Shown: positions 31,241 to 59,748, counted from the stretch's first letter. The stretch is 64,000 nucleotides of DNA from an uncultured Leptospirales bacterium (GCA_964624235.1 CAZUXY010000001.1:143288-207287), one strand, 5' to 3'. Notes: generated from the sequence alone by a model not told the origin. Translations and numbers: made by a program.

Positions 31241-31334
31241 TGAAAGCTCCTTTGAACATAACAATGTAATGTCAGGTGTAGTACACCATAGTTTCCGGTA
31301 TTGTCTGAACGCAAGTCCTTTTTAGCGTTAAAGA

Positions 31335-31387
31335 TTCGGGGACGCCTGTGAATTCAATTTTCAAGTACAACAGGTCTTGTCCCCGAA
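31335..31387 (-). promoter_or_regulatory. Intercistronic imperfect hairpin between the FabK-like and FadH-like genes
   Basis: TTCGGGGAC...GTCCCCGAA outer stem with an inner CCTGT/ACAGG pairing. No U-tract follows on either strand. Confidence 0.3.
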
Positions 31388-31418
31388 TAGAAAAACAGAC
31401 AGTAAACCTGTAGTGATA

Positions 31419-32456
31419 TTAACCTATCATGGTGCCAACGGTTTTTTTAACCGCTTTTGCTTCACTTACAATACGTTTGATTATATCGGCGACCTTGGGC
31501 GTATCTTTAATTATACCGGTAACCTGTCCCAGGGGGAGTACTCCTTTTTCGTTGTCTCCGTTGACTGTACCTACCTTAAAAGCCTTGAATCCATTCGCCA
31601 TCGTGGCCATCTGGCGTGCCTTACCGTATCCTGAAAGGAGTATAGCGAAAGCCAGCTTCATCCATGGAAATCCCAGAGAATTCGCTATTTCACGGGAGTT
31701 GTAGGCAGCGGTGATCAGGTTCAGCGGTTTCTTTGCAATTTTTAACGCCTTTTCTGATTTCATGAACCGCGCGGGGAGACCGTCGATTTTCGGGGTGTAA
31801 ATCGTATCATAGACGGTCTTCTCGATGCTTAGCTTTTTCATCTGCTCGTGCACCGGGCTTTCCACCGAATTCATGAACCGTGTACCCATGGATACACCTT
31901 CTGCGCCCAGCGCCAGCGCGGCCGCAAGCCCCCTCCCGTCTGCGAAACCCCCTGCGGCGATTACAGGGATCTTCACCGTGTCGACAATGCTGGGGATGAG
32001 TACCAGCGAGGTGACCGCCCCACCGTGACCTGCCGCTTCGTGGCCGGTAACGATCAGGGCGTCGGCTCCTGATTTTTCCGCCGCCAGTGCATGCCGGTGT
32101 GTGGTCACGGTGGCTATCACTTTCCCACCGTACGCATGAGCCCCCTCGGTGATCCGGTCGCCCTTGCCAAGTGCGTAATTGATTACCGGTACCTTTTCCT
32201 CTATAAGCACCATGGCGTTGCGTTCAGCGCCGGGAAAGTACAGGGCTATGTTGGCGCCGAATGGTTTCTTGGTAAGCTTGCGTATTTCACGCACCGCTTC
32301 ACGTGTCTGTTCCGCAGTGAGAATACCGGTGGCGAGTATGCCCAGACCCCCCGCATTGCTTACGGCGGCGACCAGTCTGGGCACGCTGATCCAGCTCATG
32401 CCGGAAAGTATGATAGGGTATTCGATGCCGAAAAGCCTGGTAATACGGGTTTTCAT
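31419..32456 (-). CDS. Nitronate monooxygenase (NMO/2-nitropropane dioxygenase) family flavoprotein, FabK-like enoyl-ACP reductase II candidate
   Basis: MKTRITRLFGIEYPIILSGMSWIS...AGGLGILATG... N-terminus typical of the NMO/FabK family. GAGGAG RBS. Confidence 0.7.
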   Translation of the reverse strand: MKTRITRLFGIEYPIILSGMSWISVPRLVAAVSNAGGLGILATGILTAEQTREAVREIRKLTKKPFGANIALYFPGAERNAMVLIEEKVPVINYALGKGDRITEGAHAYGGKVIATVTTHRHALAAEKSGADALIVTGHEAAGHGGAVTSLVLIPSIVDTVKIPVIAAGGFADGRGLAAALALGAEGVSMGTRFMNSVESPVHEQMKKLSIEKTVYDTIYTPKIDGLPARFMKSEKALKIAKKPLNLITAAYNSREIANSLGFPWMKLAFAILLSGYGKARQMATMANGFKAFKVGTVNGDNEKGVLPLGQVTGIIKDTPKVADIIKRIVSEAKAVKKTVGTMIG

Positions 32457-35034: not shown

Positions 35035-35637
35035 CTAAAATATCTGCATAATCGCCTCTGCCATAAGGCGGTATCCAAACACAGTGGGATGAACCAGATC
35101 GGCCTGCACCAGCTTGCGGAACTCAACCCCCTCTGCGATCTTACGCTGCCAGTATTCATGCACCTTGACCAGCGGCAGGTTGTGCTGTGTTGAAAGCGCC
35201 GAAAGCCGCTCATAGAATTGACCGGCATAACTGTTTTCGCGGGGATTGCCCAGACACACCGAAGTGACAAGCACGATCTCTGAATCGACACCACTTCTGA
35301 TCTCCCCGATTATCTGAGATATGCTTTGCCCGAACTCATCGGGTGTATAACCGGTAAAGGCATCATTAAGGGCGAACTGAATGAATACAAGATCGGGATC
35401 GCCATCCACAACATCATAACGTACCCTGGTCAATCCCCCCTGAGCGGTGTCGCCGGGTATACCCCGGTTCAACAGGGAAAAAGCGGCAGCGGGGTATCTG
35501 GACTTGAGCATCTCATCAAGAAAATCAAGATATCCCTTTTGCACCATCCACCCCTGGGTTAAAGAGTCCCCCAGTGCGATTATAGTTACGGGTGAACCGC
35601 TCATTAGTTTCGCAATAGTTTTTTCAGGCTTATGCAT
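35035..35637 (-). CDS. SGNH/GDSL hydrolase
   Basis: All four SGNH blocks are present: GDSLTQG, GIPGDT, NDA and DLVHP. Confidence 0.75.
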   Translation of the reverse strand: MHKPEKTIAKLMSGSPVTIIALGDSLTQGWMVQKGYLDFLDEMLKSRYPAAAFSLLNRGIPGDTAQGGLTRVRYDVVDGDPDLVFIQFALNDAFTGYTPDEFGQSISQIIGEIRSGVDSEIVLVTSVCLGNPRENSYAGQFYERLSALSTQHNLPLVKVHEYWQRKIAEGVEFRKLVQADLVHPTVFGYRLMAEAIMQIF

Positions 35638-35808
35638 TCAGTGCCCTTAACAAAATATAGTTTACTTTATAACTCATTTTGTATAAGTGTAGTTATCCAT
35701 AGATCATGTCAACGAGAAAAGAACTGGGACTTCGCAAATGATCCGGACAACACGAAAATACAACAACTACAGCCCCGGAGAAAGGGTGTGCTTTTATGGA
35801 GGAATAAT

Positions 35809-36813
35809 ATGAAAAAGGTTCTGATTACAGGAGGGACGGGTTTTATAGGGAACAGCCTGGTGGAAGCTAATCTCAGGAAAAAAAACAAGGTAAGGGTGCT
35901 TGTACTGCCGGGTGATCCCGATGAAGCAATCCTGAAAAGCAAAAAGGTGGAAGTTGTATACGGGGATGTCAGGGATTACGCCTCGCTGGAAAAAGCCTGT
36001 AAGGGTATGGACATCGTTTTCCACTGCGCCGCGGTAGTTACCGACTGGGCGCCCCGTAAACTCTTTGATGAAGTCACCATAGGCGGAACCGAGAATATAT
36101 GCCGCGCCGCACTCAAGGCGAAGGTTAAAAGATTTGTCGATATGAGCACCAACGACGTGTTCGGCATGGATGAAAAGAATGTTATGGATGAAACCTTCCC
36201 GCTGCGTCCGTGGAATGAACCGTATCCCGATACGAAAATAGCTGCGGAACGGATTACCTGGGAGTATTATAAAAAAGGACTCCCGGTAACCATGGTTTAT
36301 CCCTGCTGGGTTTTCGGACCCGGGGACAAGACCTTTGTTCCGCTCATTGCCGATGCCATTGTCAAACGAGAACTGATATTCTGGCGGAGGGATGTCATTG
36401 TATGGCCTACCTATATTGAAAACCTGGTGGATCTGCTCATGCTGATAGCCGAAGACCGTCGTGCGGTGGGGAACGGTTATCTGGTGCACGATGGTGAATC
36501 AATCACGTTCCAGGAGTTCTGCACCGACATCGCGAAATCCCTCGGTGTGCCGCCGATAAAGACTCACATCCCCTATTTCCTTGCGTATGTCGCATCATGG
36601 TGTATGGAACTGGTATGGAAGGCGCTGAAGATCAAGACCAGACCGCTCCTGACCACCTATACGGTCAAAAACCTTGGTTCCCGCTTCAGGTTCTCAATCG
36701 CGAAAGCAGAAAGGGAACTGGGATGGAAACCGAGGATTCCGTTCAGGAAAGGATTCGAGAAAACCATGGAATGGTTGAAAACGCTGGATGCGGCGACGCT
36801 GAAACAGAAGTAA
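35809..36813 (+). CDS. NAD(P)-dependent epimerase/dehydratase (extended SDR, 3-beta-HSD-like)
   Basis: MKKVLITGGTGFIGNSLV Rossmann motif and catalytic YPDTK (YxxxK). GGAGG RBS 6 nt before the ATG at 35809. The track's start at 35632 is an upstream extension. Confidence 0.8.
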   Translation: MKKVLITGGTGFIGNSLVEANLRKKNKVRVLVLPGDPDEAILKSKKVEVVYGDVRDYASLEKACKGMDIVFHCAAVVTDWAPRKLFDEVTIGGTENICRAALKAKVKRFVDMSTNDVFGMDEKNVMDETFPLRPWNEPYPDTKIAAERITWEYYKKGLPVTMVYPCWVFGPGDKTFVPLIADAIVKRELIFWRRDVIVWPTYIENLVDLLMLIAEDRRAVGNGYLVHDGESITFQEFCTDIAKSLGVPPIKTHIPYFLAYVASWCMELVWKALKIKTRPLLTTYTVKNLGSRFRFSIAKAERELGWKPRIPFRKGFEKTMEWLKTLDAATLKQK

Positions 36814-36824
36814 TTTGAGGTGCC

Positions 36825-38012
36825 TTATATCTGTACGCTTTTTTTAACAGACTCGCGCACTTCCCGGCAGATCTGAAGTTCCTCGTTGGCGGCTATTACC
36901 ATACCGGCGATAGGGCTTGTGTGTTTTGTAATAAAAGAGCGATGGTTGTTATTTGATTTGTCATCAACCTCTATTCCCAGGTACGAGAAATGAGAAAGCA
37001 CTTCTTTTCTAAGTTTCCATGAATGCTCTCCTATCCCCCCGGTGAACACGATTGCGTCGATGCCGTTCATTACGGCTATATAAGAACCGATTGTAGCGAC
37101 CAGCCTGTTGATAAGTATACTGTTCGCCAGACCCGCCCTGGTGTCGCCTGCAAGGGCCAGTTCTTCTATGGTACGGTAATCACTGCTTTTCCCGCTTATG
37201 CCGAGGAGACCTGACTGCCTGTTTATAATCTCCTTCGTTTGCTCCGTGGTGAACCCCTGCGTGAGCAGAAAGAGTATAATCTCAGGATCGAAGGAACCGC
37301 TTCGGGTTCCCATGGGCAGCCCTTCCAGCGGTGTAAAGCCCATTGATGTATCAAAACTCTCCCCGTGGCGGACGGCGCAGATACTCTGGCCGTTGCCGAG
37401 GTGACAGGTGATTATCTTCAAATCGGATGCGGGTTTTCCCATCAATTCGGCGGCCCTGTACGTCACGTACTTGTGACTGGTTCCGTGAAACCCGTATTTT
37501 CTGATGCCGAATTTGTGATAAAGATCCAGTGGCAGCGCATATAGAAATATTTCTTCCGGCATGGTTTGATGGAAAGCGGTATCGAAAACGGCGAATTGGG
37601 GTATACCAGGAAGCGCACCCGCAAGTATTTCTATGCAGGACACATTAATGGGATTATGGAGCGGCGCGAGGTAAGAAATCTTCTTAAGTTCATCGACCAC
37701 CCCGCGGGTTATTCCGGTAATCGACTTATATCGTTCCCCACCGTGGACCACCCGGTGACCTACGGCGGTTATATCTTTACGACTCTTCAGGACCTGAAGC
37801 GTTTCCATCTGGTTCAGCATGTCTGTAATAGCATCCCCATGGGTACTGATAATGCAGTTTTCCTTCCCGGAGTTGATGTTTCTTAAACAGGACCCCGTAA
37901 ATGCCGTTCCAATGCCGTCATAATGTCCCCTGATCAGCACCTCTTCGGTAGCACCGTTGAAGAGTTGGAATTTCAGCGAACTGCTGCCGGCGTTTACCAC
38001 CAGTATTTTCAT
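36825..38012 (-). CDS. ackA: Acetate kinase
   Basis: MKILVVNAGSSSLKFQLF N-terminus and ...ITCHLGNGQS... are acetate/propionate kinase signatures. About 395 aa from the ATG at 38012. Confidence 0.85.
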   Translation of the reverse strand: MKILVVNAGSSSLKFQLFNGATEEVLIRGHYDGIGTAFTGSCLRNINSGKENCIISTHGDAITDMLNQMETLQVLKSRKDITAVGHRVVHGGERYKSITGITRGVVDELKKISYLAPLHNPINVSCIEILAGALPGIPQFAVFDTAFHQTMPEEIFLYALPLDLYHKFGIRKYGFHGTSHKYVTYRAAELMGKPASDLKIITCHLGNGQSICAVRHGESFDTSMGFTPLEGLPMGTRSGSFDPEIILFLLTQGFTTEQTKEIINRQSGLLGISGKSSDYRTIEELALAGDTRAGLANSILINRLVATIGSYIAVMNGIDAIVFTGGIGEHSWKLRKEVLSHFSYLGIEVDDKSNNNHRSFITKHTSPIAGMVIAANEELQICREVRESVKKSVQI

Positions 38013-38052
38013 GAATGTGTCCGAGACCGCCTTTATTCCTCTAGACGGCACT

Positions 38053-38083
38053 GCAGGGCCGCGGCTTTGAACCGCGGCCCTGC
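38053..38083 (-). promoter_or_regulatory. GC-rich intercistronic hairpin between xsc and ackA
   Basis: GCAGGGCCGCGG-CTTTGAA-CCGCGGCCCTGC is a perfect 12-bp stem, extendable to about 15 bp. No U-tract follows. Confidence 0.4.
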
Positions 38084-38094
38084 GGCCAGGAGGT

Positions 38095-39819
38095 TTATAC
38101 CATACTTAAGTGTTTGTATTTCGGCAAATAACGTACCGCCGGTTTGAACGCGTCTCTTCTGAAAGGTTCGGCAAGCACCTTCTCCCCTCCCTCGATAACG
38201 GCGTTTATCACCACCGGTTTACCGCATTTTACCGCCTCCTGAACCACATCCTTGACCTCTTTATAATCCTCTACCTTGAAGCCTACGGCTCCCATATCAC
38301 GGGCAAGCTGGGCGTAATCAGGATTGGTGGGAAGGTTAACGCCGACGTACCGGTTTTGAAAGAAATCGATCTGGTTCTTTTTCTCAGCACCCCATTCCAG
38401 ATTGTTGAATACCACCGCAATGACGGGTATATTTTCCCTTACCGCGGTCATCACTTCACTGAGACCGCTGATACCCCATGCTCCGTCACCCTGCAACGCA
38501 AAAACCGGCTTATCGGGCGCTCCCACCTTTGCGCCGATGGCGGCACCGTAAGCAAACCCGCAGTTTCCCCAGCTGAGCGCAGCGATATGCTGACGGGGGC
38601 CGTTGAACTTGAGATAGCTGTTGCAGATGGAACAGTTGTTTCCGATATCAGTCGCCACCAGGGATCCCGCCGGCATGGCTTCCGACAGTTCTTTTATGAA
38701 CCTTCTGGGATGCATGAGCTTATTGGTTGAAGATGACCATTTGTCCAGTTCATCCTTCCAGGCCTCTTTCTCTTTCTGAACGTCCTTGAGTCTGGACTCG
38801 TCACTCTTCCTTTCAGGTGCAATTTCCTTTATTGCAGAAAGCAGCTGATGGGCAAACTGTTTTGCATCCGCCATTATTCCCAGATCGGTTTTTTTGGAAA
38901 GACCGAACTGCGACGCATCGATATCGACCTGTATTATTTTTGCGTTCTTGGGCCAGTAATCGAAGTCATATTGCGGTAAAGTTCCAAAGGGCCCCAGACG
39001 GGTTCCCAGGGCCAGTACCAGATCGGATTTGACTATGGTTCTCATTGCTGCTTTGGATCCGCAATACCCGATAGGTCCCACCGCCAGCGCATGATCGGCC
39101 GGAAAACTGTCGTTATGCAAATAGGTGTTTACCACCGGGGCGGTGAGGTATTCGGCAAGGGCTCTGGTTTCATCATGCGCATTTGACATAGAAACCCCTC
39201 CTCCCGCGAGGATTACGGGATACTTCGCCTTTAAAAGTATCTCGGCCGCCGTCCTGATCTGGTCCACCGATCCCGGTCCGTAGACAACATCTTCCGTGGG
39301 ATATATGTCATCATTGACTTCACCGTAAAAATAATCCCTGGGGATGTTCAATTGCGCCGGCCCACCGAGCAGCTTCGACATATAAAAACATCGTCGTGCC
39401 AATTCGGCCATTCGTTCAGGCCTGTTGACTCTGACCTGATACTTGGTACACTTTTCAAACCAGGGCATCTGGTCCAGTTCCTGGAAGCCGCCCTTACCCA
39501 GACCCATACTGCCCGTTTCAGGGGTAATGGCTATGACCGGAGAATGGGCCCAGAATGCCGCCGTTATAGCAGAAATAAAATTGGCCGCACCTGGACCGTT
39601 CTGTGCAATACATACTTGAGGTTTACCGGTAACACGGGCATATCCGTCCGCCGCGTGGGCGGCCGCCTGTTCATGAGCAACCATTACAAATCGTATCCCC
39701 GCATCGGGAAACAGATCAAGGGCATCCATAAAGGCGCTTCCAACTATTCCGAAGACATTAGTAATCCCTTCAGCTACAAGAGTCTCAACTAGTGCCTCAG
39801 AGGGTGTCATTTTCGGCAT
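38095..39819 (-). CDS. xsc: Sulfoacetaldehyde acetyltransferase-like ThDP enzyme (Xsc family)
   Basis: MPKMTPSEALVETLVAEGITNVFGIVGSAFMDALDLFPDAGIRF..., ...NGPGAANFISAITAAFWAHSPV..., ...DIGNNCSI..., ...EWGAEKKN... and ...EPFRRDA... match my recollection of characterised Xsc sequences much better than acetolactate synthase. The ATG at 39819 has an AAGGAGGTG RBS. Confidence 0.65.
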   Translation of the reverse strand: MPKMTPSEALVETLVAEGITNVFGIVGSAFMDALDLFPDAGIRFVMVAHEQAAAHAADGYARVTGKPQVCIAQNGPGAANFISAITAAFWAHSPVIAITPETGSMGLGKGGFQELDQMPWFEKCTKYQVRVNRPERMAELARRCFYMSKLLGGPAQLNIPRDYFYGEVNDDIYPTEDVVYGPGSVDQIRTAAEILLKAKYPVILAGGGVSMSNAHDETRALAEYLTAPVVNTYLHNDSFPADHALAVGPIGYCGSKAAMRTIVKSDLVLALGTRLGPFGTLPQYDFDYWPKNAKIIQVDIDASQFGLSKKTDLGIMADAKQFAHQLLSAIKEIAPERKSDESRLKDVQKEKEAWKDELDKWSSSTNKLMHPRRFIKELSEAMPAGSLVATDIGNNCSICNSYLKFNGPRQHIAALSWGNCGFAYGAAIGAKVGAPDKPVFALQGDGAWGISGLSEVMTAVRENIPVIAVVFNNLEWGAEKKNQIDFFQNRYVGVNLPTNPDYAQLARDMGAVGFKVEDYKEVKDVVQEAVKCGKPVVINAVIEGGEKVLAEPFRRDAFKPAVRYLPKYKHLSMV

Positions 39820-39909
39820 AATATACACCTCCTTATCCTTTTAAAATATGATTTATGCATAGTGCACAAGAACACCGCTGCATGAGCTTTTACAATTTAC
39901 ACCTGCTTT

Positions 39910-39944
39910 AATGAATATAATTCATATAATGAATTATATTCATT
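39910..39944. promoter_or_regulatory. Perfect 16-bp inverted repeat (candidate operator) in the xsc / FAD-FeS divergent control region
   Basis: AATGAATATAATTCAT-ATA-ATGAATTATATTCATT. It contains two TATAAT hexamers and abuts a TTGACA hexamer (39949-39954, minus strand) placed to serve the xsc promoter. Confidence 0.5.
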
Positions 39945-40193
39945 TTGATGTCAACATTTTTTCAAAGTAATTATGTTACTGCGCCCTGATAAATATAAAG
40001 TATATTTCGCAGTTTTCACTTTCATTAACCCAAAACAGAAAAAGTACCTGACACCTAATATCCGGTACTCTGATCTCGTGGATTTTTTGATTGACGGTAT
40101 TTATGTAGGCCATAGAACTGCAAATTTTGTGCTATACTGTCTTTATCAAATCATATGACCTGGTTTGTTGTCTACACATAAGAGGACGTCTGG

Positions 40194-43100
40194 ATGATGA
40201 AAAAAGATTTTAAGTTCAGGGAAATTCCATATAACTATACGTCGTTTTCCGACCGTGAAATAATACTCAAATATTACGATGAAGAAACCCTTGGAATTCT
40301 GGATTCACTGCGCAGCAAGCGGATCACCGGCAGGAGCGCAAAGCTGCTGTTCGAGGTGATCGGTGATATTTTTATTATTGAAAGAAACCCCTATATTTAC
40401 AATGACCTTCTGGAAAACAGGAAAAAACGTAATCGTCTGAGAAAACTGCATAACGCCCGTCTGGATATCATTGAACAAGGCGCAAACGGCAATACCCTGG
40501 TGTTGAAAGTGGTGGGAAAAACCCGCACCCTCGATAATAAATTCTTTGAAAGTTTTCCCCACGAAAAAAAATTCAGAGATAAAACCTGCAAGGCACTGAA
40601 AGCTGTAACATCAATCAATAACATTCATTTTACCGCATTTCATAAAGTATCCCATGCCACCGATTCATCAGACTGGCGTGTGGAATATCCTGCCGTTATA
40701 GTATATCCCGACTCTGCAGATGAAATACCCGGACTTGTCCACGCGGCAAAAAAACTTGGCCTCTCGATCATACCAAGGGGTGGCGGTACGGGACTTACCG
40801 GTGGCGCTGTGCCGGTACGTAAAAATACCATGATCATTAATACTGAAAAACTCAACCGTATAGGGACTATCGATACAGTAACGGAAAACGGCATAACATT
40901 CCCTGTCATCAGTATGGAAGCCGGAGCAGTTACTGAAGAGGTAATCGACCACTGCCATGAAAAGGGATACATATTCGCAACCGACCCCACATCCGCATGG
41001 GCATCTACTATTGGTGGGAACATCGCTGAAAACGCCGGTGGAAAAAAATGTGTAATCTGGGGAACGGCCATTGATAACATATATTCCTTCAGAATAGTGA
41101 ACGCACAGGGTCAACTGCTGGAGGTTAAACGACAAAACCATCCCTATCGCAAGATCCTTCCTGATGATGCGGTTTCTTTTGACGTAAACCTGATTACCGG
41201 ACGTAAGCAACAGAGGCTGAAATCGGTTCACCTCAACGGTACCGATATAAGAAAAAAGGGACTGGGCAAGGACATCACAAACAAATCACTTAAAGGAACG
41301 CCGGGGATACAGAAAGAAGGAGGCGATGGTATAATCGTATCGGCGACCTTTGTATTGTACCAGCCCTTTGCCTTCTGTAGAACCGTCTGCCTGGAGTTTT
41401 TCGGCAATAATCTCATTAATGCATCCAGGGCTATAGTTGATATCAAGAATAATTTCGAAAATAATAATGAAGTATTCCTTACCGCACTTGAACATTTTGA
41501 TGAAAAGTACGTACATGCGGTAAATTACCGAAATAAATCCAACCGGAACGAGATTCCAAAGGCGGTTCTGTTGATTGATATCGAGTCAAATAATAATGAC
41601 ATGCTTGATATCGCGGCGAAAAACATCATCTCGCTGGTTGAAAAATACAACACTGAAGCTGTTACAGCCGGTGATGACAAGGAACGCGAACTGTTCTGGA
41701 AAGACAGGAAGAATCTCGGTGCCATTGCAAAACACACCAATGCATTCAAACTCAATGAAGACATCGTTATCCCTATGGATAAGCTTCCCGATTTCGCCGA
41801 TTTCATTGAAAAGCTCAATCTTCAAAAAGAACTGGAAAATAATATCGGAATTCTTGAAAACCTGAAGGACTATCTGCTTGAACTACGCGTGAAACAGAAC
41901 GAGCATTTCGGTAACATCAGAATAGATTCATTCCTTGATTTACTGGAAAACAAAAAAACTGAATATCTTGAATTCCTCGAAAACCTGGATAATTCCTGCC
42001 GGATATTGAAGGTTTTTCCAAACAACGGCGATAAAGACAAAACCGTCTTCAAGATGATCCAGGATGGAGAGCTTTCTGTATCCTTCGATGAAGACGTAAT
42101 GCGGCAATTTATACGGATGTTTCACGGTTATGACGAAATACTGGAACGTTTTCAAGATATCACGAGCGAGGAAGCTAAAAGAAAAATAATCATCGCTACC
42201 CACATGCATGCGGGCGACGGCAATGTACATGTGAATATCCCGGTTCATTCAAATGACTATATAATGATGCAGGAAGCAGATGAAACGGCGGGTATAGTGA
42301 TGAAAAAGACCGTGGATCTCGGCGGGGTGATATCAGGAGAACACGGCATCGGACTCACCAAACTAAGGTTCATCGGCCAGGATGTCCTTGACGGCTATGC
42401 CGAATACAAGCGGGAAAATGACCCTGAAAACCTTTTTAATCCGGGGAAACTCACCTTAGATTTCCCGCTGCACAGGATATACACTCCATCTTTCAATCTC
42501 CTTGAACTGGAAGCCTTTATCCTGAAAGCAACCGATCTGGAAAAACTCTCCATGTCCATCGCGTCATGCGTACGCTGCGGAAAGTGCAAGTCCGTATGTA
42601 ACACCCATTACGCCGGAGGAACGATGTTTTATAATCCCAGGAACAAGATCCTCGGGGTAGGGCTCATTATTGAGGCAGTACTTTACGATGCTCAGACATC
42701 GAATTCCCTTTCTTTTCGTAATTTCAGAAAACTGCAGGAGATCTCAGACCATTGCACCATGTGCCATAAATGCCAAGTGCCATGCCCGGTCAAAATTGAC
42801 TTTGGCAACATTACCCTTACCATAAAAGAGCTGATGGTACACAGGAGAAAATCCAAGTTCAAGCTGGTCACATGGGTGACGCTTTTTTACCTCAGGAGGA
42901 AGGGTTTCTATATAAACAAAGTTTTTCGTTTGGGATTACTGAGACTGGGATATACCGCCCAGAGGGCCGGCTACATTATGCACCGACCCTTTAAAAGGAT
43001 CACCGCATCGCTGTTACCCGGCATCAATGCTTTTCTTAACAGTAAACTTCCCAGAACGGGCAACAAGTCGGTTAGAGAACTGTTCGGCCTCAAAGGCAGC

Positions 43101-43910
43101 AACACGTTTTTTGCATTCGAAAACCATGATCTACCTGTTAAGAAAAGTGTGTTCTATTTCCCGGGCTGCGGTTCCGAAAGAATGTTCCCTGAAATCAGCC
43201 TGGCGGTCCTTGCGCTGCTTTACAATGCCGGTATACGAGTGGTTATACCGCCCGAATACCTGTGCTGCGGATATCCTTTACTTGCAAACGGCAGGGTCGA
43301 ACAGTCCGATATCAAGAGCTTTGAAAACCGCGTAATACTGCACAGGGTCGCAGACATCATCGGATATATGGATATAAGCAGTGTCATTGTCTCATGCGGC
43401 ACCTGTTACGAAATGCTGGAAAAATACGAAGTCGGTAATATCTTCAACGGTGCGGAACTCATCGATATTAACGAATTTCTCGCTAGAGAAAAACTGTATG
43501 TTATTGACGGGCAGGAAAAATCACCGCTGGTTTATCACGACCCCTGCCATACCCCGCTGAGACACATGGGTTACGAAGCGGCTTTTCACAACCTGTTTGG
43601 CCGTACCCCCGTTTTGATTCCAAATTGCTGCGGTGAAGGGGGTACTCTGGCGCTTTCTACACCTGAAATATCAAACCTTTTGCGCGAAAGGAAGAGAATG
43701 AATATTATTTCCAGGGCGGTTCCCACACGCGCCAACATCCTCACCACATGTCCAAGCTGTGTACAGGGGCTGTCAAAAACAAACGGGCACCCCCATTTTG
43801 CCGGCAAATCGCTGACGGTGTACTTTGCCGAACGTGTACTTGGTAAACACTGGAACAAAGAATTTCTTTCTAAGGCTACACAGGGTGGTGTCGAGCGGAT
43901 GATATTCTAG
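40194..43910 (+). CDS. FAD-linked oxidase fused to 4Fe-4S/CCG-domain Fe-S oxidoreductase (YdiJ/GlcD-GlcF-fusion-like D-2-hydroxyacid dehydrogenase), 1238 aa
   Basis: FAD-PCMH motif IIPRGGGTGLTGGAVP. GEHGIGLTKLRF...NPGKL oxidase C-terminus. CVRCGKCKSVC and CTMCHKCQVPCPVKID ferredoxin motifs. Two CCG repeats (CCGYPLL, CCGEGGT). About 160 aa of unassigned N-terminus and about 300 aa of low-complexity insertion. Confidence 0.8.
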   Translation: MMKKDFKFREIPYNYTSFSDREIILKYYDEETLGILDSLRSKRITGRSAKLLFEVIGDIFIIERNPYIYNDLLENRKKRNRLRKLHNARLDIIEQGANGNTLVLKVVGKTRTLDNKFFESFPHEKKFRDKTCKALKAVTSINNIHFTAFHKVSHATDSSDWRVEYPAVIVYPDSADEIPGLVHAAKKLGLSIIPRGGGTGLTGGAVPVRKNTMIINTEKLNRIGTIDTVTENGITFPVISMEAGAVTEEVIDHCHEKGYIFATDPTSAWASTIGGNIAENAGGKKCVIWGTAIDNIYSFRIVNAQGQLLEVKRQNHPYRKILPDDAVSFDVNLITGRKQQRLKSVHLNGTDIRKKGLGKDITNKSLKGTPGIQKEGGDGIIVSATFVLYQPFAFCRTVCLEFFGNNLINASRAIVDIKNNFENNNEVFLTALEHFDEKYVHAVNYRNKSNRNEIPKAVLLIDIESNNNDMLDIAAKNIISLVEKYNTEAVTAGDDKERELFWKDRKNLGAIAKHTNAFKLNEDIVIPMDKLPDFADFIEKLNLQKELENNIGILENLKDYLLELRVKQNEHFGNIRIDSFLDLLENKKTEYLEFLENLDNSCRILKVFPNNGDKDKTVFKMIQDGELSVSFDEDVMRQFIRMFHGYDEILERFQDITSEEAKRKIIIATHMHAGDGNVHVNIPVHSNDYIMMQEADETAGIVMKKTVDLGGVISGEHGIGLTKLRFIGQDVLDGYAEYKRENDPENLFNPGKLTLDFPLHRIYTPSFNLLELEAFILKATDLEKLSMSIASCVRCGKCKSVCNTHYAGGTMFYNPRNKILGVGLIIEAVLYDAQTSNSLSFRNFRKLQEISDHCTMCHKCQVPCPVKIDFGNITLTIKELMVHRRKSKFKLVTWVTLFYLRRKGFYINKVFRLGLLRLGYTAQRAGYIMHRPFKRITASLLPGINAFLNSKLPRTGNKSVRELFGLKGSNTFFAFENHDLPVKKSVFYFPGCGSERMFPEISLAVLALLYNAGIRVVIPPEYLCCGYPLLANGRVEQSDIKSFENRVILHRVADIIGYMDISSVIVSCGTCYEMLEKYEVGNIFNGAELIDINEFLAREKLYVIDGQEKSPLVYHDPCHTPLRHMGYEAAFHNLFGRTPVLIPNCCGEGGTLALSTPEISNLLRERKRMNIISRAVPTRANILTTCPSCVQGLSKTNGHPHFAGKSLTVYFAERVLGKHWNKEFLSKATQGGVERMIF

Positions 43911-44120: not shown

Positions 44121-44858
44121 CTATCGAAGCGCTTCCTTGGAAAACAGCGAATCTCTAAGCGGCATATTATAATCAACTGCTTTTATTATCAGTTCGGTCC
44201 GTCCTTTGCCGTCTCCCTGATGCATAACCGCTATGAAAGGAGTTAAAATCCCCTTAATTCTTTTTACATCATGGTTTTCAAGGTACTTGTGCAGTGATCC
44301 GTTCTTGTATATGTCAATACGCACAACGAAATAATCGGATTTTCTTACATACAGAATTGATTTTTCATAAACCCACTTACTTTGCTTCTTGACCGCCTGT
44401 ACCATGTAACAATCCGCACCGACCGCACTGCCGTCTCCAAGATATTTGTACTCATATCCATCAAGTTCCCTTGTTTCCAGGTCCTCATAGTAAAAATGGG
44501 AATTAACAAAGGGCTTGTCCTTATCGTCAGATATTATCCTTTTGACCTTCCCTGATGAAAGCATCAGCCACTGATCATCGTCTCTGCCCTTGTACGAATG
44601 GGTCAGCAGTTTAATCCTGGTGGGTTTGGTGAAAGAAATGAGTATCCGGTCGTTTCCACCTTGCTTTTTTGTCAGCATTTCCAGTTCTTTGACAGTGGTT
44701 CTTCCTCCCTTGACAATATTCATTGCAGCATTGCTTCTTCCGCTGTCCGGTTTGGAAAGCCTGTCGTTTTTTTCCATTATCTCACGCCCCGTAAGCGCAA
44801 AAACAGGAGAGATAGAAAAAAACAGAATCAATGCAGCGAGAGTTAGCATTCTTTTCAT
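44121..44858 (-). CDS. Outer-membrane lipoprotein-sorting (LolA-like) family protein
   Basis: Signal peptide MKRMLTLAALILFFSISPVFA and a 245-aa beta-rich sequence. Typical partner downstream of MMPL exporters. Confidence 0.6.
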   Translation of the reverse strand: MKRMLTLAALILFFSISPVFALTGREIMEKNDRLSKPDSGRSNAAMNIVKGGRTTVKELEMLTKKQGGNDRILISFTKPTRIKLLTHSYKGRDDDQWLMLSSGKVKRIISDDKDKPFVNSHFYYEDLETRELDGYEYKYLGDGSAVGADCYMVQAVKKQSKWVYEKSILYVRKSDYFVVRIDIYKNGSLHKYLENHDVKRIKGILTPFIAVMHQGDGKGRTELIIKAVDYNMPLRDSLFSKEALR

Positions 44859-44983
44859 TGAAACCTCCTTGTAAATAGTATCACTGGGTATAACCCGGAA
44901 AACTTTGTTATGAATTCCCTGACAAACTCATTCGGTAACTGAAAATTCATCACGGGAATCATATGCAAAATTCATAACCGCAA

Positions 44984-47656
44984 TCAGCAATCACTCTCTT
45001 TAATGTTAAAAAACCTGCCTATATAAAAATACCTCCAGAACCATGATGAGGATTTAGACTTTTCAAGCGATACACCCGTAGTGATAATCACAGAGGGGAG
45101 AATCAGTAGAGCACCCATGGTTGTGGCTATCATGGTATTGCCCGCAAGTATACCGAAATATACAACCGGGCTGAAACTGGATACCACCAGCACCGAGAAT
45201 CCGAAAATGAGCGCCAGTGAAGTATAAATAATGGCCTTTCCCGATGTCGAGATGGTTTTTGCTATTATTTCTTCAGGAGAGAGATTGTGACTATTATAAT
45301 GCCTATAGGTGTTTAAAAAGTGGATAGTATCATCGACCCCTATTCCAATGGTCAGTGATGCAATGATTGCGGTGGCAATATCAAGGCGGATCCCGGTCCA
45401 TCCCATCAGGCCGAAATTAATAAGTATCGCGACCGATATCGGGATCATGGATAACAGGCCAGCTTTAAGGTTCTTAAAGAGTAATACCACAACCAGACAT
45501 ACGGCCGCCAGACTGAATAGTAAACTGAATAACTGTCCCTGCACCACATACTCCGACAATCGAATAAATATTGAAGGTTCTCCGGTGATTTTATATGCTG
45601 CCGGTCCGGTCAGTTTAGAGTTCAGATATGCAGCTACCCTGTCATGAATAATCTTTGTTTCAGCGGTTCCAAGAATTTTATTTCCGGATTCACCCAGCCT
45701 TGCGAAAATAAGCGCGGTACGATATTCCGGGTCCAGGTACGGTTCAAACTCGTCAGCCCTTCCGTCAAAATCATCATCCGCGCCGGTATATATTTCCAGA
45801 TAATCCATGATATCAACACGGGAATCGGGAATCCTGTAATAATTTATACTATCGTTGTTCATCGCCATGTGCATGGTCTTGATTATATCGGGGAAAGCAT
45901 CGGTACGGCCGATATGCAGATCCTCTGTGCTGGTCAGCCAGTGCCTGATTTCTTCCACGGTTCTGAGAAATTCAGGATTCTTTATTCCATCACTTTCCCC
46001 GGAATCGATCAGTATACTCATACCATATGACCCACCGTATTTCTCAGCAATCAACCGGCTGCTGGTACGCACATAATCGTGTTCCTTGAAATAAGCCGAA
46101 AGAGTGGTTTCCACCTTTACCCTGGTCAGTCCCACCATTGATATAATCAGTATTAACACTGTAACGGCAAGAACCGAACGCGGATGGCGTGTAGATAACC
46201 GTATGAAAACCCCCACCAGCAGGTCTATACGAGTTTTTACCTGATCACCGTTACGTTTAACGATTTTTTTCTTGGTTCTTGAATGTGGGAGAAGCATTAG
46301 ACAGGCCGGTATGAGCGAAGAAGAAATAATTACTGAGAATAAAACCCCGACTGCCGAAAAAAGACCCCATTCCCGAATACCCACCACCTGGTTGGTCAGC
46401 AGGGATATAAAACCGATGAAAGTGGTGCCGCCTGCCAGTATTATCGTAACACTGATATGGGACATTGTACTGCGTAACCCTTCGCTTTTACCCATGCGCC
46501 CTATTTCAGAAAAGTACAGATAATACTGGTTTAAAATGTGAATGGAATAAGAACTCCCGACGGCGATGATCAGGGGCGGAAGGGATATGCCGATAATCGT
46601 TATGCTGTATCCAAGATACCCCATCAGTCCGAGTACCCAGATATCCCCGATAATTAATGTACAGAATGGTAAAATGACCCCCCGCACCGAACGGAAATTC
46701 AGGTAAAACACAATTACGATAACAAGTATGACCAGAGGCAGGAAAGTATACAGATCACGGTGCATATAATCATTCATCTTGATCCCGATGATCGGCACGC
46801 CCTGCGGTGTGATGGTAAGCGCTTTATACCCTGCGGCAATATCCCAGACCCTTTTCGTTATATCGTCATCCTTCTTGATGTTTTCCAGCTTCACCATGAC
46901 ACAGAAATCGGTGATCACACCGGTGCGAGGGTCGGTAGAGTACAGGGCCCCCTTGAACGCCGGGTTTTTGGTAAGGCGCTTTTGAAAATTGAGTATATCC
47001 TTAGGTGAAGCCGGCAACTTGCGTTTACCCAGGAGATCCTTATCGATTATTTCTTTTGCCGTCAATGTGTCATCTGTGCCACTAATGTCCTTTGCAGTTA
47101 AAGGAGATAAAACCGCATCTATATGACGTTTTTTCTTAAGTTTTGCTGTTTCTACGATATGATCATGTATCCGTTTTAGGTTGCTCTTGCTGAGCTTAGT
47201 ACCAAGCCTGTAATGCGCTTGTATGTATCTTTCCAACTCTCGTGAGAATGGGGCATCATCTCTGAAATTGTTCAAGAGGACCGCGGGTTCAATTTCACCG
47301 CTTGATGAGAGATCACGCAAACGTTGTATCCTTCGGTTTTCCTTCGATTCGTCGGAATCCTTGTATTCCTCAAGATCGGTGATCAGGTCGTTTACGAGCG
47401 AAAGTGTCTTGGGCGACCAGAGGTCATTACATGTGATGTTCATAATGATGAACTTACCGAGATTGCCGTAGACTTTTTTTACTTCTTCATAATAGAGATA
47501 CTGGGTATCCTTTTTGGGCATCATGACTTCCAGCGAATTATCAAAATTTAGCCGCGGCACACCTGTTCCAAGCACCAGGGTTATTGCCGAAATGATAACG
47601 ATTATTTTTTTCGGATGGCTCAGTACATATTTAATATAACGATCAAGCATATTCAT
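44984..47656 (-). CDS. MMPL/RND-superfamily exporter (HpnN-like lipid transporter)
   Basis: 890 aa with two 6-TM bundles separated by large periplasmic loops. The start overlaps the TetR stop (ATGA). Confidence 0.85.
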   Translation of the reverse strand: MNMLDRYIKYVLSHPKKIIVIISAITLVLGTGVPRLNFDNSLEVMMPKKDTQYLYYEEVKKVYGNLGKFIIMNITCNDLWSPKTLSLVNDLITDLEEYKDSDESKENRRIQRLRDLSSSGEIEPAVLLNNFRDDAPFSRELERYIQAHYRLGTKLSKSNLKRIHDHIVETAKLKKKRHIDAVLSPLTAKDISGTDDTLTAKEIIDKDLLGKRKLPASPKDILNFQKRLTKNPAFKGALYSTDPRTGVITDFCVMVKLENIKKDDDITKRVWDIAAGYKALTITPQGVPIIGIKMNDYMHRDLYTFLPLVILVIVIVFYLNFRSVRGVILPFCTLIIGDIWVLGLMGYLGYSITIIGISLPPLIIAVGSSYSIHILNQYYLYFSEIGRMGKSEGLRSTMSHISVTIILAGGTTFIGFISLLTNQVVGIREWGLFSAVGVLFSVIISSSLIPACLMLLPHSRTKKKIVKRNGDQVKTRIDLLVGVFIRLSTRHPRSVLAVTVLILIISMVGLTRVKVETTLSAYFKEHDYVRTSSRLIAEKYGGSYGMSILIDSGESDGIKNPEFLRTVEEIRHWLTSTEDLHIGRTDAFPDIIKTMHMAMNNDSINYYRIPDSRVDIMDYLEIYTGADDDFDGRADEFEPYLDPEYRTALIFARLGESGNKILGTAETKIIHDRVAAYLNSKLTGPAAYKITGEPSIFIRLSEYVVQGQLFSLLFSLAAVCLVVVLLFKNLKAGLLSMIPISVAILINFGLMGWTGIRLDIATAIIASLTIGIGVDDTIHFLNTYRHYNSHNLSPEEIIAKTISTSGKAIIYTSLALIFGFSVLVVSSFSPVVYFGILAGNTMIATTMGALLILPSVIITTGVSLEKSKSSSWFWRYFYIGRFFNIKESDC

Positions 47657-48246
47657 TACCTTCCGGCTTTAATTGCCAATGAAGACATCAGCATGGTTCG
47701 GAATGACGCGATTGTTTCTTCAATGGTAAGATTGTTTTTCAGTATAAATTCGGGCTTGAAAACGGTTTCGCTGGCCCCTTTGAAAAAACCTGATACGAAA
47801 CAGGGATTCAATTCTATGAACAATCCCATTTTTACACCCCTGGTATAGTTTTCCATAAACAGATTGCTCAGTTCATTAATAAAAACGGTAAGCTTGGCGG
47901 CGATATCCGGATAAAACCTGTGTACATCCTCCAGAAGGATCGTGGAAAAATTCCTGAAGAGTGAAAAGGTAATTTCAAAACAATGATGGAGTTTTTGCAG
48001 AGGATTTTCTTCTGATTTATGGACACTATCAAAGCTGGATTTCAGAAGTGAAAAGATACCATCAGCTATTTCGTATACCATATCATCCTTGCTCTGATAG
48101 TATTTATAAATGGTTTTTTTGGATATACCGCATTCATGGGCCAGTGTGTCGATGGTAATACGTTTAAGCCCGTAAATAAAGGAAAGATCACGGAATTTTT
48201 CGAATATCTGTTGTTTTACCCTGTCGTTCATGGCGTTGATACTCAA
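47656..48246 (-). CDS. TetR/AcrR family transcriptional regulator
   Basis: HTH: ITIDTLAHECGISKKTIYKYYQSKDDMV. Confidence 0.85.
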   Translation of the reverse strand: MSINAMNDRVKQQIFEKFRDLSFIYGLKRITIDTLAHECGISKKTIYKYYQSKDDMVYEIADGIFSLLKSSFDSVHKSEENPLQKLHHCFEITFSLFRNFSTILLEDVHRFYPDIAAKLTVFINELSNLFMENYTRGVKMGLFIELNPCFVSGFFKGASETVFKPEFILKNNLTIEETIASFRTMLMSSLAIKAGR

Positions 48247-48472: not shown

Positions 48473-49252
48473 ATGAATCGAGCAGTGCTTTTGCTGATGA
48501 TATTCATGATACCGGCCCTTTTTTGTGCACGCACGGTTTCTGTTCCCGAAAGGCACGATTCCCAGCCGCTACAGAAAAACCTTCACAGTTTTTTCTCCAT
48601 GTGTGAGCGGGATATACTCAATGCGGCAAAAGTCATCTCAGACAGGGATCTTATCAGGAATTTGACACATTTGCATAGAATGAATGCAGGGGGCAAAAAG
48701 TATTATCTGCTTGAAAGAGAAGCAATAACCGAGATGATCAAATCGGTAACTGAAGGCATATACTCGGATTTCATCCTGATCAATCGCCATGAGGTTGTGA
48801 TATATACCCGGGAGAACGACCAGATATTCGGGAAAAAAGTAAGTAGCTCTTTGATCGGATCCCCCCTGGACCATTGCGTCAAAAATTCGAGCCATGGAAT
48901 GTATATTGAAGACACATCGTCGTTTCCGCCGGAATCAGGACAATACAATTTGTTTATCTCTGCAACAGTGGTTAAAGAGGAAACCGTTCACGGGGTTTTC
49001 ATATTACAGGTAGGTACAGGGAAAATCGAAGAATCAACCCCGCCGAATACAACGATAATCGACAGGGAAGGCATGATTCGCATTTCGAGAAACCATAAAG
49101 ATTTGCTTTCTCCTTACCCTTTTTATGGGAAGATGGATGTTAATGGTATTGGGAAAGGCCGGTTAATGGTATTTGAAAACGCTGATATCGTTTTCAAATA
49201 TTTTCTATTTGAATTCAGAAACCTGAAATGGATAATCGTTGTCGGAAGGTAG
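48473..49252 (+). CDS. Secreted hypothetical protein (possible periplasmic sensor-like domain)
   Basis: Signal peptide MNRAVLLLMIFMIPALFCA. 259 aa. Ends with a hydrophobic KWIIVVGR just before the stop. Confidence 0.45.
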   Translation: MNRAVLLLMIFMIPALFCARTVSVPERHDSQPLQKNLHSFFSMCERDILNAAKVISDRDLIRNLTHLHRMNAGGKKYYLLEREAITEMIKSVTEGIYSDFILINRHEVVIYTRENDQIFGKKVSSSLIGSPLDHCVKNSSHGMYIEDTSSFPPESGQYNLFISATVVKEETVHGVFILQVGTGKIEESTPPNTTIIDREGMIRISRNHKDLLSPYPFYGKMDVNGIGKGRLMVFENADIVFKYFLFEFRNLKWIIVVGR

Positions 49253-49274: not shown

Positions 49275-50543
49275 CTAAGAGGACAGAAAATCTGCTATAC
49301 GAGAATGCACATCACCAAAAAAATTATAGGTCTCAGGATGGACCAGCCTGAGCTGATGAATCTTCATTGCAAGATCCATTATTGCTTTATCATCAAGATA
49401 CTTCTTACCGCTTTTCAGTATTCCCTGAACTAGACCCGGAAGCAATAAAAGGGGTTCGATATTTTCTCTGGAAATGTATTCCTTTACTCCTCGTTCCTTA
49501 ATAATACCAGTTTCCAAATCATCCTCATCAATCAATGATACTATAAGTTGTCCTGACCGGATTTTATGAAATTCATCAATGGTGAAATGATTATTCATCA
49601 GCAGAATAACATCTGAATTTGTGAATATATTTTCTGCCGTTGTTGCGAGTCCTCCCGATTTTTCAAAAACATGCATCAGTTTTTCATTATTGTCATAACC
49701 CAGCACCCTCAGACATCCCATAGACAGCAGCAACCGGGTCATGCGTATCGCTGAAACACCGATACCGATAATACCGATATTGGACTCGTTGGGTTGAAAC
49801 CGGTTCTTTTTAAATAAATGCAGTATTTCAACAAGGAGGGTTAAAGGAAGTTCATCCCCCGCAACACTCAACACCGGTTTGGATACTTCCGAACTAATTT
49901 GCTCATAAAAAGCAATATCTTCCAGGTCCTCAATAAATTGAAGACGAAAAGCTGCAAACCCCGGCTCAAGGGTCTTTATGCATTTGATAATTCCTTCAAT
50001 GAACTGATATTTCGCAACGATGGGATATGCACTTATTTCACTGAATTGGGCAATTATGGCCGAATCTCGTTCCACGTCCGTATAGTGATCGTAAACGACT
50101 GATTCAGGAACCTCCACTCTTTCCTTGATGAACGCGAAGTTCGCAATATTACTGCTTACCCCTGAGAATGATGAACCCTGGCCCTGCTGTATCTTTTCCT
50201 TAATATAATGAGAAGCGCCCAGTAACTTTAATTCCAGGTCGTGTTTGTTTTCAACCGGCATGCGGCTTTTAAAACGCAGCATTCCTCCCTGCAGAGAATT
50301 CTCAAGCAGGTTTTCTTTTTCTTTTATCCGGTAATACTCTGTTGCAGATTCAAGAAATTCAATAACTCCATCAAAGTGCTGTTTAAGTCCGTATATGATC
50401 TCCAGATCGTAAAGCTCCCAGTCACGGGATTCTTCAAGCCTTACCATTTTTTGAAGATCACATTGTTTAACATGAAGTTGCTCAGCCAGTTCGGGGAGAT
50501 GACCTCGCTTGATCTCGAGTAGTAATCTTGAAATAATTTTCAC
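49275..50543 (-). CDS. Hypothetical protein with Rossmann-like segment
   Basis: 422 aa. NIGIIGIGVSAIRMTRLLLSMGC...VLGYD resembles a dinucleotide-binding fold. No catalytic motif recognised. Confidence 0.45.
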   Translation of the reverse strand: MKIISRLLLEIKRGHLPELAEQLHVKQCDLQKMVRLEESRDWELYDLEIIYGLKQHFDGVIEFLESATEYYRIKEKENLLENSLQGGMLRFKSRMPVENKHDLELKLLGASHYIKEKIQQGQGSSFSGVSSNIANFAFIKERVEVPESVVYDHYTDVERDSAIIAQFSEISAYPIVAKYQFIEGIIKCIKTLEPGFAAFRLQFIEDLEDIAFYEQISSEVSKPVLSVAGDELPLTLLVEILHLFKKNRFQPNESNIGIIGIGVSAIRMTRLLLSMGCLRVLGYDNNEKLMHVFEKSGGLATTAENIFTNSDVILLMNNHFTIDEFHKIRSGQLIVSLIDEDDLETGIIKERGVKEYISRENIEPLLLLPGLVQGILKSGKKYLDDKAIMDLAMKIHQLRLVHPETYNFFGDVHSRIADFLSS

Positions 50544-59466: not shown

Positions 59467-59748
59467 TAAGGAATTTCCTGGTAGATTTTCGCGCGAGGAA
59501 CAAGGTAACCGGTCAATGGGGAATACCCGGCACGCTTAAAGAGCTTTTGAATCCTTAAAAAAATAACACACCGGTGTCAATAAAAAAAAGCAACTGTCCG
59601 ACGGTCGAAAGGTGAATTATCAGAGTGATTGTGTCGATTTGATTGTATATTTTTATTGATTTGTTCTGTCATGAGGATGATTCTGGGCATTAAAAAATTA
59701 TATGAAACCCCGTTATGTATAGAACAGTTTTTTCTGTTGAGGTTTATT

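Follow-up and report, generated by a model that had tools for sequence, protein, structure and literature searches.

The window analyzed here, a 64,000-nucleotide (64-kb) stretch from an uncultured Leptospirales bacterium (GCA_964624235.1 CAZUXY010000001.1:143288-207287), carries adjacent genes for a predicted sulfoacetaldehyde acetyltransferase dependent on thiamine diphosphate (ThDP) (xsc) and for an acetate/propionate-family kinase (ackA). Divergent from them lies a very large gene for a dehydrogenase that combines flavin adenine dinucleotide (FAD) and iron-sulfur (Fe-S) domains with DUF3683. The open reading frame (ORF) map and family scans find all three genes at the coordinates in Table 1. 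The host is an uncultured, Leptospirales-like member of the Spirochaetota, and the best homologs are named from Spirochaetota and Leptospirales metagenome-assembled genomes (MAGs). An earlier, sequence-only reading had proposed that xsc and ackA form a module for substrate-level phosphorylation and that the dehydrogenase feeds it by oxidizing a hydroxy sulfonate such as isethionate or sulfolactate. The first proposal is borne out at the level of prediction, since curated thresholds are passed, an ortholog lies in a taurine cluster, and the pair recurs in anaerobes; the second is not supported.

Table 1. Features of the xsc locus, numbered from the first nucleotide of the window
Feature	Coordinates	Strand	Basis or remark
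ackA, acetate/propionate-family kinase, 395 aa	36825-38012	-	TIGR00016, PF00871
Perfect 14-bp GC-rich stem-loop, no T-tract	38053-38083	-	between xsc stop and ackA start
xsc, predicted sulfoacetaldehyde acetyltransferase (ThDP-dependent), 574 aa	38095-39819	-	family models, orthologs
Divergent intergenic region, 374 bp	39820-40193		xsc promoter/operators in xsc-proximal half
Two tandem 15-bp palindromic operators (ATGAAT-N3-ATTCAT)	39911-39943		predicted; perfect inverted repeat
Sigma-70-type xsc-ackA promoter: TTGACA, 17-nt spacer, CATTAT	39926-39954	-	promoter scan
Putative extended -10 (TGcTATACT) of the DUF3683 gene's own promoter	40130-40138	+	read from sequence, ~56 nt before start codon
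DUF3683 / FAD_binding_4 / FAD-oxidase_C / 4Fe-4S / CCG / DUF3400 dehydrogenase	40194-43910	+	Pfam architecture

Family assignment of Xsc and AckA

Curated models identify the xsc product, which the sequence-only reading had already called Xsc-like, as a predicted bona fide Xsc. It scores 846 bits against NF005713 (cutoff 620) and 759 bits against TIGR03457 (cutoff 676.4), while acetohydroxyacid synthase (AHAS) models reach at most about 370 bits, below their cutoffs of 538-976, and pyruvate oxidase (POX) and oxalyl-CoA decarboxylase (OXC) models fall far below theirs. In the comparison with AHAS and other ThDP enzymes that the same reading had suggested, the best match is therefore to Xsc, and AHAS homology is not preferred. 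All three domains of the POX-type ThDP fold are found (TPP_enzyme_N, _M, and _C), and both the ThDP/Mg motif GDGAWG...NN and the cofactor-activating Glu (in AHEQAAAH) are invariant among nine orthologs (alignment A1, mean column identity 82%). A database protein that is 100% identical (P0001) has the same 574-aa length. Xsc homologs form a tight group at 70-86% identity across Spirochaetota and Desulfobacterota, and the Xsc of Humidesulfovibrio idahonensis (P0062, locus L004), 75% identical over its full length, is encoded in an xsc-Aminotran_3-AlaDH-ABC-EamA taurine cluster. The PDB holds no Xsc structure (best match BbmA, 240 bits), and the mechanism and structure of Xsc are barely characterized (PMC13327070).

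AckA matches the acetate/propionate kinase family at 454 bits for TIGR00016 (cutoff 293) and 452 bits for PF00871 (spanning 1-391 of 392); the acetate-specific and propionate-specific equivalog models both stay below cutoff. Its longest ORF, 36825-38051 on the minus strand, opens at a GTG at 38051. The likely start is the ATG at 38012, which gives a 395-aa protein with the N-terminus MKILVVN and is called in identical public contigs. To place the pair in context, we used 80 species-representative Xsc loci, 60 of them with at least 2 kb on both flanks; an initial crude ORF clustering undercounts genes in high-GC loci, and neighborhood counts were redone with tblastn. In this sample ackA adjoins xsc at 13/80 loci (9/60 with full flanks), and the two genes also stand together in most spirochaete relatives that were fetched individually (L006, L008, L170, and L172).

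Between the two genes lies a stem-loop with a minimum free energy of -41.4 kcal/mol (z = -4.0), and none of 200 shuffled sequences folds as well. A terminator scan does not call this hairpin. It has no T-tract and therefore probably serves transcript processing or stability between the cistrons, or partial attenuation.

Xsc would convert sulfoacetaldehyde and phosphate to acetyl phosphate and sulfite with ThDP as cofactor, and AckA would use acetyl phosphate and ADP to form acetate and ATP. So far as sequence can tell, the assignment of xsc-ackA as a substrate-level phosphorylation module is correct, and the biology is already known. In Taurinivorans muris, Xsc forms acetyl phosphate and sulfite, and AckA then forms ATP, with taurine as the source (PMC10507020), and the same route is cited there for taurine fermentation by Desulfonispora thiosulfatigenes. 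The predicted module resembles that of T. muris LT0009 in its ThDP-dependent Xsc, its ATP-forming acetate kinase, its anaerobic host, and in needing no Pta. It differs in belonging to an uncultured spirochaete and in having no tpa, ald, or transporter gene nearby: the operon stands alone among housekeeping genes. What is new is the host lineage, together with an operator that ties xsc-ackA to an uncharacterized cassette outside the window.

Control region, shared operators, and sulfoacetaldehyde supply

The sequence-only reading placed a control region of 375 bp between xsc and the dehydrogenase gene. The region is there, and its length is 374 bp. The predicted xsc-ackA promoter is the top-scoring promoter-like site within it (10/12 positions matched), and the same TTGACA-plus-operator layout precedes xsc in L057, L093, L172, L006, L008, L011, and L090. 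Two predicted operators, ATGAATATAATTCAT and ATGAATTATATTCAT, lie 18 bp apart center to center; taken together, they make up a perfect inverted repeat (16+16) overlapping the -10 element. In our model the sigma-70-type promoter would start xsc-ackA transcription and a putative repressor would bind the two tandem operators, covering the -10. Rfam and tRNA scans covering the window give no match and no tRNA gene, respectively, and there is therefore no riboswitch in the xsc control region. A 61-aa ORF inside the region (39973-40158) was considered as a gene and is probably spurious: it matches no family and is called only in identical contigs, not in relatives.

The operator recurs at a small set of promoters. 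Across the 2.6 Mb of related loci that were fetched, xsc is preceded by exact or one-mismatch copies in L057, L091, L093, L090 (where the operator is at the contig edge), L006, L008, and L172; L057 and L091 are one lineage, as are L092 and L093. Further exact or one-mismatch copies lie upstream of a cassette encoding short-chain dehydrogenases/reductases (SDRs), a second ThDP enzyme, a major facilitator superfamily (MFS) transporter, and a TetR regulator in L007, L008, L011, and L175, and another copy precedes a glyoxalase-SDR operon in L008. Exact matches expected by chance number about 0.3, as estimated from base composition. The few remaining one-mismatch matches fall mostly within coding regions and look like chance. 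In the same 2.6 Mb, the motif is absent from every DUF3683 locus without xsc.

The clearest case comes from the organism most syntenic with the window, in which xsc (L172) and the cassette (L175) lie on the same 99-kb contig, 44 kb apart. Their promoters are near-identical, each with AAAAACATTGAC followed by two ATGAAY-N3-RTTCAT sites 18 bp apart. Within one genome, xsc and the cassette have the same promoter/operator architecture, as expected of a regulon, and the window has the xsc-side operator.

The cassette runs in the order SDR_A, ThDP enzyme (ThDP2), MFS transporter of the anion:cation symporter type, SDR_B, sometimes a methyl-accepting chemotaxis protein, and TetR. Besides L175:9085-16423, it is found at L007, L008, L011, L014, L016, L019, L020, L025, L030, L031, L032, and L042, and cultured carriers are Desulfatibacillum alkenivorans DSM 16219 and Desulfosarcina widdelii PP31. 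By tblastn, ThDP2 adjoins xsc in 10/80 Xsc genomes and SDR_B in 15/80. ThDP2 is closest to 2-hydroxyacyl-CoA lyases, oxalyl-CoA decarboxylase, and benzaldehyde lyase/formolase. PDB searches with the two SDRs return only generic FabG/HBDH-type matches and no known sulfonate SDR. The cassette does not occur in the 64-kb window, nor is the window's 262,175-bp contig represented among the top 120 homologs of ThDP2.

A related arrangement accompanies the closest Xsc relative (86% identity; L170:10001-20933), where xsc and ackA share a locus with genes for an aldehyde:ferredoxin oxidoreductase, a ThiS-like protein, TetR, a 591-aa ThDP enzyme, an epimerase-type SDR, an SBF transporter, and an SDR. 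Here a different palindrome, TGACTGRCCGTCCAGTCA, is common to the promoters of xsc and of TetR, the latter serving the ThDP-epimerase-SBF-SDR cassette. L170 is thus a second, differently regulated version of the association of xsc with a ThDP-SDR-transporter set.

Because the same promoter/operator design precedes the cassette in relatives, we take xsc-ackA to be the final module of a regulon whose parts are dispersed, and the cassette as a more likely source of sulfoacetaldehyde than the DUF3683 gene. Our tentative proposal, which we regard as possible though less likely than not, is that anaerobes of the Spirochaetota and Desulfobacterota have an undescribed regulon for sulfonate catabolism under repressor control, with xsc-ackA as its last step, in which a lyase-like ThDP enzyme, two SDRs, and an anion transporter would form a new route to sulfoacetaldehyde. 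Candidate chemistries, offered without proof, are an acyloin-type C-C cleavage of an oxidized C3 sulfonate, such as 2,3-dihydroxypropane-1-sulfonate (DHPS) or sulfolactaldehyde, and oxidation of sulfolactate to sulfopyruvate that is then decarboxylated by an enzyme unrelated to ComDE.

A taurine aminotransferase encoded elsewhere is a serious alternative source of sulfoacetaldehyde. In its full form, this explanation makes xsc-ackA the end of a conventional taurine pathway (Tpa and Ald, or TauXY) whose remaining genes lie elsewhere, with the cassette uninvolved. Known biology speaks for it: the sequence from taurine through Xsc to AckA is demonstrated in T. muris (PMC10507020), and the 75%-identical Humidesulfovibrio Xsc sits in an xsc-tpa-ald-ABC cluster. 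Among the 80 Xsc loci, Tpa-like genes adjoin xsc in 10 (TauE genes in 12), and the spirochaete locus L007 carries an Aminotran_3 gene 7 kb away from xsc. However, an aminotransferase and an alanine dehydrogenase are both absent from the 64-kb window, and in spirochaete relatives the xsc operator is common to the SDR/ThDP/MFS/SDR cassette, not to an aminotransferase gene, which suggests coregulation with the cassette rather than with taurine genes. The H. idahonensis cluster encodes a complete set for taurine uptake and transamination and has no adjacent ackA; in the window ackA is present and every one of these upstream genes is missing. We consider a purely conventional taurine pathway unlikely, while giving it real weight.

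The DUF3683 dehydrogenase beside xsc

The large protein (1238 aa, or 1237 aa from the second ATG) has six domains in the order DUF3683, FAD_binding_4, FAD-oxidase_C, Fer4_8 (a 4Fe-4S dicluster), CCG, and DUF3400. The sequence-only reading described it as a YdiJ-like FAD/Fe-S fusion. The general architecture holds, but the equivalog cutoffs are missed: the YdiJ model NF049975 scores 70 bits against a cutoff of 1350 and matches only residues 131-315, GlcD (TIGR00387) reaches 193 bits against 568, GlcF (NF008434) reaches 53 bits against 333, and the LdhH model is far below cutoff. Like E. coli YdiJ, the protein fuses a GlcD-type FAD domain to a 4Fe-4S/CCG (GlcF/GlpC-like) module; unlike YdiJ, it carries DUF3683 on the N-terminal side and DUF3400 on the C-terminal side, and its cap domain is enlarged by an insertion of ~100 aa. 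In the PDB it is matched best by glycolate oxidase, D-lactate dehydrogenase, and D-2-hydroxyglutarate dehydrogenase.

The family is highly conserved and keeps housekeeping company. Across Spirochaetota, Leptospirales, and Ignavibacteria, members share 58-72% identity over 1,237 aa, and proteobacterial-type metagenome members are 40-43% identical. At 80 metagenome DUF3683 loci, 43 of which have at least 2 kb on both sides, the commonest neighbors are ruvB (16 loci), a HemJ-like UPF0093 gene, homoserine dehydrogenase, and miaA, and threonine-synthase-like and cysteine-synthase-like PALP enzymes are also common. Two proteins annotated as "FAD-linked oxidase," BPHYT_RS03150 and HSERO_RS19500, have the identical domain architecture (Price et al. 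2018, PMC5764234). We liken the window protein to them by this architecture, as well as by similar length, high conservation, and housekeeping contexts. Their mutants show serine-rescuable auxotrophy or essentiality, the authors detected no canonical serA in either genome, and a noncanonical 3-phosphoglycerate dehydrogenase was proposed (PMC5764234), an activity that is putative in Burkholderia too. A Rhodoferax homolog, 68% identical, has been treated as a likely SerA (PMC11535334). The phenotype could alternatively reflect a D-2-hydroxyglutarate dehydrogenase working with SerA, as shown for the architecturally related E. coli YdiJ, which is linked metabolically to SerA and serine synthesis (PMC9504171). 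The 64-kb window contains no serA, serC, or serB. We suggest that the DUF3683 enzyme is a D-2-hydroxy-acid-type dehydrogenase, either a substitute for 3-phosphoglycerate dehydrogenase or a recycler of D-2-hydroxyglutarate.

The sequence-only reading instead made the dehydrogenase an uncharacterized feeder that oxidizes isethionate or sulfolactate and supplies Xsc, the three genes being one catabolic unit around a shared control region. Some observations favor this: GlcD-type flavoenzymes oxidize 2-hydroxy acids, as the best PDB matches show, no other feeder lies in the window, and the divergent adjacency is kept in ~5 related Spirochaetota lineages (the window, L057/L091, L090, L092/L093, and L172/L173). 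Across the sampled loci the pairing is rare. A DUF3683 gene accompanies just 1/80 Xsc loci (L057, a Leptospirales MAG) and 0/60 with full flanks, and xsc-ackA accompanies 2/80 DUF3683 loci (L091 and L093) and 0/43 with full flanks. By comparison, genes of the SDR/ThDP2 cassette adjoin xsc at 10-15 of the 80 Xsc loci, ackA at 13, TauE at 12, and Tpa at 10. The co-occurrence of the three genes, on which the sequence-only reading had staked its proposal, is thus kept in the immediate clade and, at the loci sampled, found nowhere beyond it.

Relatives also separate the two genes. L170, with the closest Xsc, has no DUF3683 gene nearby, and the other spirochaete Xsc loci at 81% identity lack it as well. 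L172, which keeps the adjacency, has the window's whole block of PBP1A, CarD, PIN, FMN_red, and two hypothetical genes, and in L006 the same two hypothetical genes stand directly upstream of xsc without a DUF3683 gene between. In L092/L093, an IS110-family transposase gene (DEDD_Tnp_IS110 and Transposase_20; L093:4906-5877, L092:1-934) sits between the xsc operator and the DUF3683 promoter region. After this insertion the operator remains with xsc, and a conserved, DUF3683-proximal region of ~110 bp remains with the DUF3683 gene.

The DUF3683-proximal ~110 bp of the intergenic region holds separate conserved promoter elements. A TTGACG box is common to the window, L057/L091, and L092/L093 in the upstream comparison, and TTTGTGCTATACTG, at the putative DUF3683 -10 element, is identical in the window and L090; a simple promoter scan does not call this extended -10. 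The DUF3683 gene would thus have its own promoter.

The adjacency of the DUF3683 gene and xsc matches inherited gene order rather than a functional unit, because it is limited to a narrow clade, L170 and L006 have xsc without the DUF3683 gene, and an IS110 element splits the pair. The feeder proposal is further opposed by the unrelated housekeeping genes whose synteny is kept along with the pair, the cross-phylum conservation of the family in housekeeping contexts, the serine-biosynthesis genetics (PMC5764234), and the absence of the operator from DUF3683 genes lacking xsc. Its chemistry is also awkward, since oxidation of sulfolactate gives sulfopyruvate, which needs a decarboxylase not present in the window, and isethionate is not a 2-hydroxy acid. 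A hydroxy-sulfonate feeder role is therefore not supported, we hold it to be very improbable, and we do not count the DUF3683 gene within the xsc-ackA functional unit. It is most likely a conserved housekeeping gene that neighbors xsc by lineage-specific gene order.

A different arrangement occurs in six Burkholderiales MAGs (L067, L068, L070, L080, L083, and L089; e.g., L067:5909-11713), where an oxidase of ~980 aa with YdiJ-like FAD/4Fe-4S/CCG architecture (NF049975, 501 bits, below cutoff) is divergent from xsc, with a TauE-family gene next and a LacI-type regulator downstream of xsc. By analogy, this different fusion lends the feeder idea some plausibility. The Burkholderiales oxidase may be an undescribed flavoenzyme feeder for Xsc, acting for example on isethionate or sulfolactate, and the concept of a GlcD/GlcF-type feeder may be realized there, not by the DUF3683 family.

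A model for the locus and its meaning

Taken together, we favor, with a probability of roughly 0.7, a model in which a known type of Xsc/AckA desulfonation operon is controlled by a repressor and supplied by the cassette or a taurine aminotransferase, and in which the DUF3683 gene is independent. Sulfoacetaldehyde would come most likely from the cassette, alternatively from a taurine aminotransferase, either being encoded outside the window, and the DUF3683 gene would neighbor xsc through lineage-specific gene order alone. Family membership, the synteny counts, and the sharing of operators are direct observations, while the enzyme activities, the identity of the repressor, and the chemistry of the cassette and its occurrence in this genome are inferences.

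Several points weigh against this model. Neither a sulfoacetaldehyde source, nor a sulfite exporter, nor a regulator is visible in the 64-kb window. The presence of the cassette in the window's own genome is argued by analogy with the syntenic L172/L175 organism, which would place it some 20 kb or more past the window's 3' end; we found no published description of the cassette in the literature, and its chemistry is putative. On the side of the dehydrogenase, the divergent spacing of 270-375 bp between the DUF3683 gene and xsc is kept in ~5 related lineages and may reflect a clade-specific functional recruitment. It is genetics that ties the DUF3683 family to serine synthesis, and a DUF3683-type protein did not complement an E. 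coli serA mutant (PMC5764234). Recruitment of the DUF3683 enzyme as a sulfonate dehydrogenase in this clade nonetheless appears to have only a slim chance of being correct, and is much less likely than the cassette regulon.

The least probable explanation is drift of this clade's Xsc-like enzyme to a nonsulfonate substrate, for example phosphorolysis of another 2-substituted aldehyde from the lyase cassette, which would leave the module unconnected with sulfonates. In its favor, the window lacks a sulfite exporter or reductase and known sulfonate genes, the cassette enzymes match no sulfonate-specific family, and Xsc is poorly characterized with no PDB entry (PMC13327070). Against it, the enzyme passes the curated equivalog cutoff, its identity to Xsc proteins of two phyla is 70-86%, with one of these in a taurine cluster, and the column identity of alignment A1 makes a shift in specificity hard to accommodate.

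Elsewhere, the window is unremarkable chromosomal sequence, with the housekeeping genes glyS, pnp, truB, infB, nusA, rimP, mgsA, PBP1A, carD, and pckG, a TetR/RND/LolA-like trio, and several oxidoreductases and hydrolases. Pfam and NCBIfam scans of essentially all ORFs of at least 150 aa find no class-III aminotransferase, IseJ, SauS, ComDE, Pta, or TauE in the 64 kb, so that the absences listed by the sequence-only reading (Pta, TauE, and any known sulfoacetaldehyde-generating enzyme) hold; alanine dehydrogenase is likewise not found.

Immediately downstream of the DUF3683 gene lies the trio (44121-48246, minus strand) of TetR, an RND protein (HAE3/MMPL/HpnN-like), and a LolA-like protein. 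It is present in L057, L095, and L101 and absent from the otherwise syntenic L172. Together with the HpnA/OleD-like extended-SDR gene at 35632-36813, it hints at a lipid-export system. We considered the TetR of this trio (47656-48246) as a regulator of xsc and rejected it: it has no detectable similarity to the cassette TetR and belongs with the RND and LolA-like genes. The extended-SDR gene, convergent with ackA, was likewise rejected as a remnant of the L170 epimerase, given a family-level identity of 29% over 164 aa and no operator upstream.

A conserved pair of genes matching no family (49275-50543, minus strand, and 48473-49252, plus strand) has homologs that immediately precede xsc in L006 and precede the DUF3683 gene in L172; the 422-aa protein of the pair (49275-50543) gives a weak, subthreshold match to the NAD-binding domain 2-Hacid_dh_C (21.5 bits). 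At 29219-32456 (minus strand), an old yellow enzyme (OYE)/FadH-type Fe-S flavoenzyme (BaiCD/bilirubin-reductase-like, ~480 bits, below cutoff) stands beside an NMO/FabK-like flavoprotein, and nothing ties this pair to xsc. The gene at 59629-60852 (plus strand) matches NF052526, a model for a putative nickel-pincer-nucleotide-dependent ornithine cyclodeaminase, at 583 bits (cutoff 440).

These results extend energy-conserving desulfonation by Xsc and AckA, as predicted from the genes, to uncultured Spirochaetota, a modest addition to the organosulfonate fermenters and respirers of anoxic habitats. They also remove a tempting annotation, that of a giant FAD/Fe-S "isethionate/sulfolactate dehydrogenase," which is unsupported, and they add to the evidence for a conserved housekeeping role of the DUF3683 family, with a SerA substitute or a D-2-hydroxyglutarate dehydrogenase as its candidate functions. 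A better target for a new sulfoacetaldehyde-forming pathway would be the cassette that carries the xsc operator, which abuts xsc in 10/80 genomes and is present in two cultured organisms.

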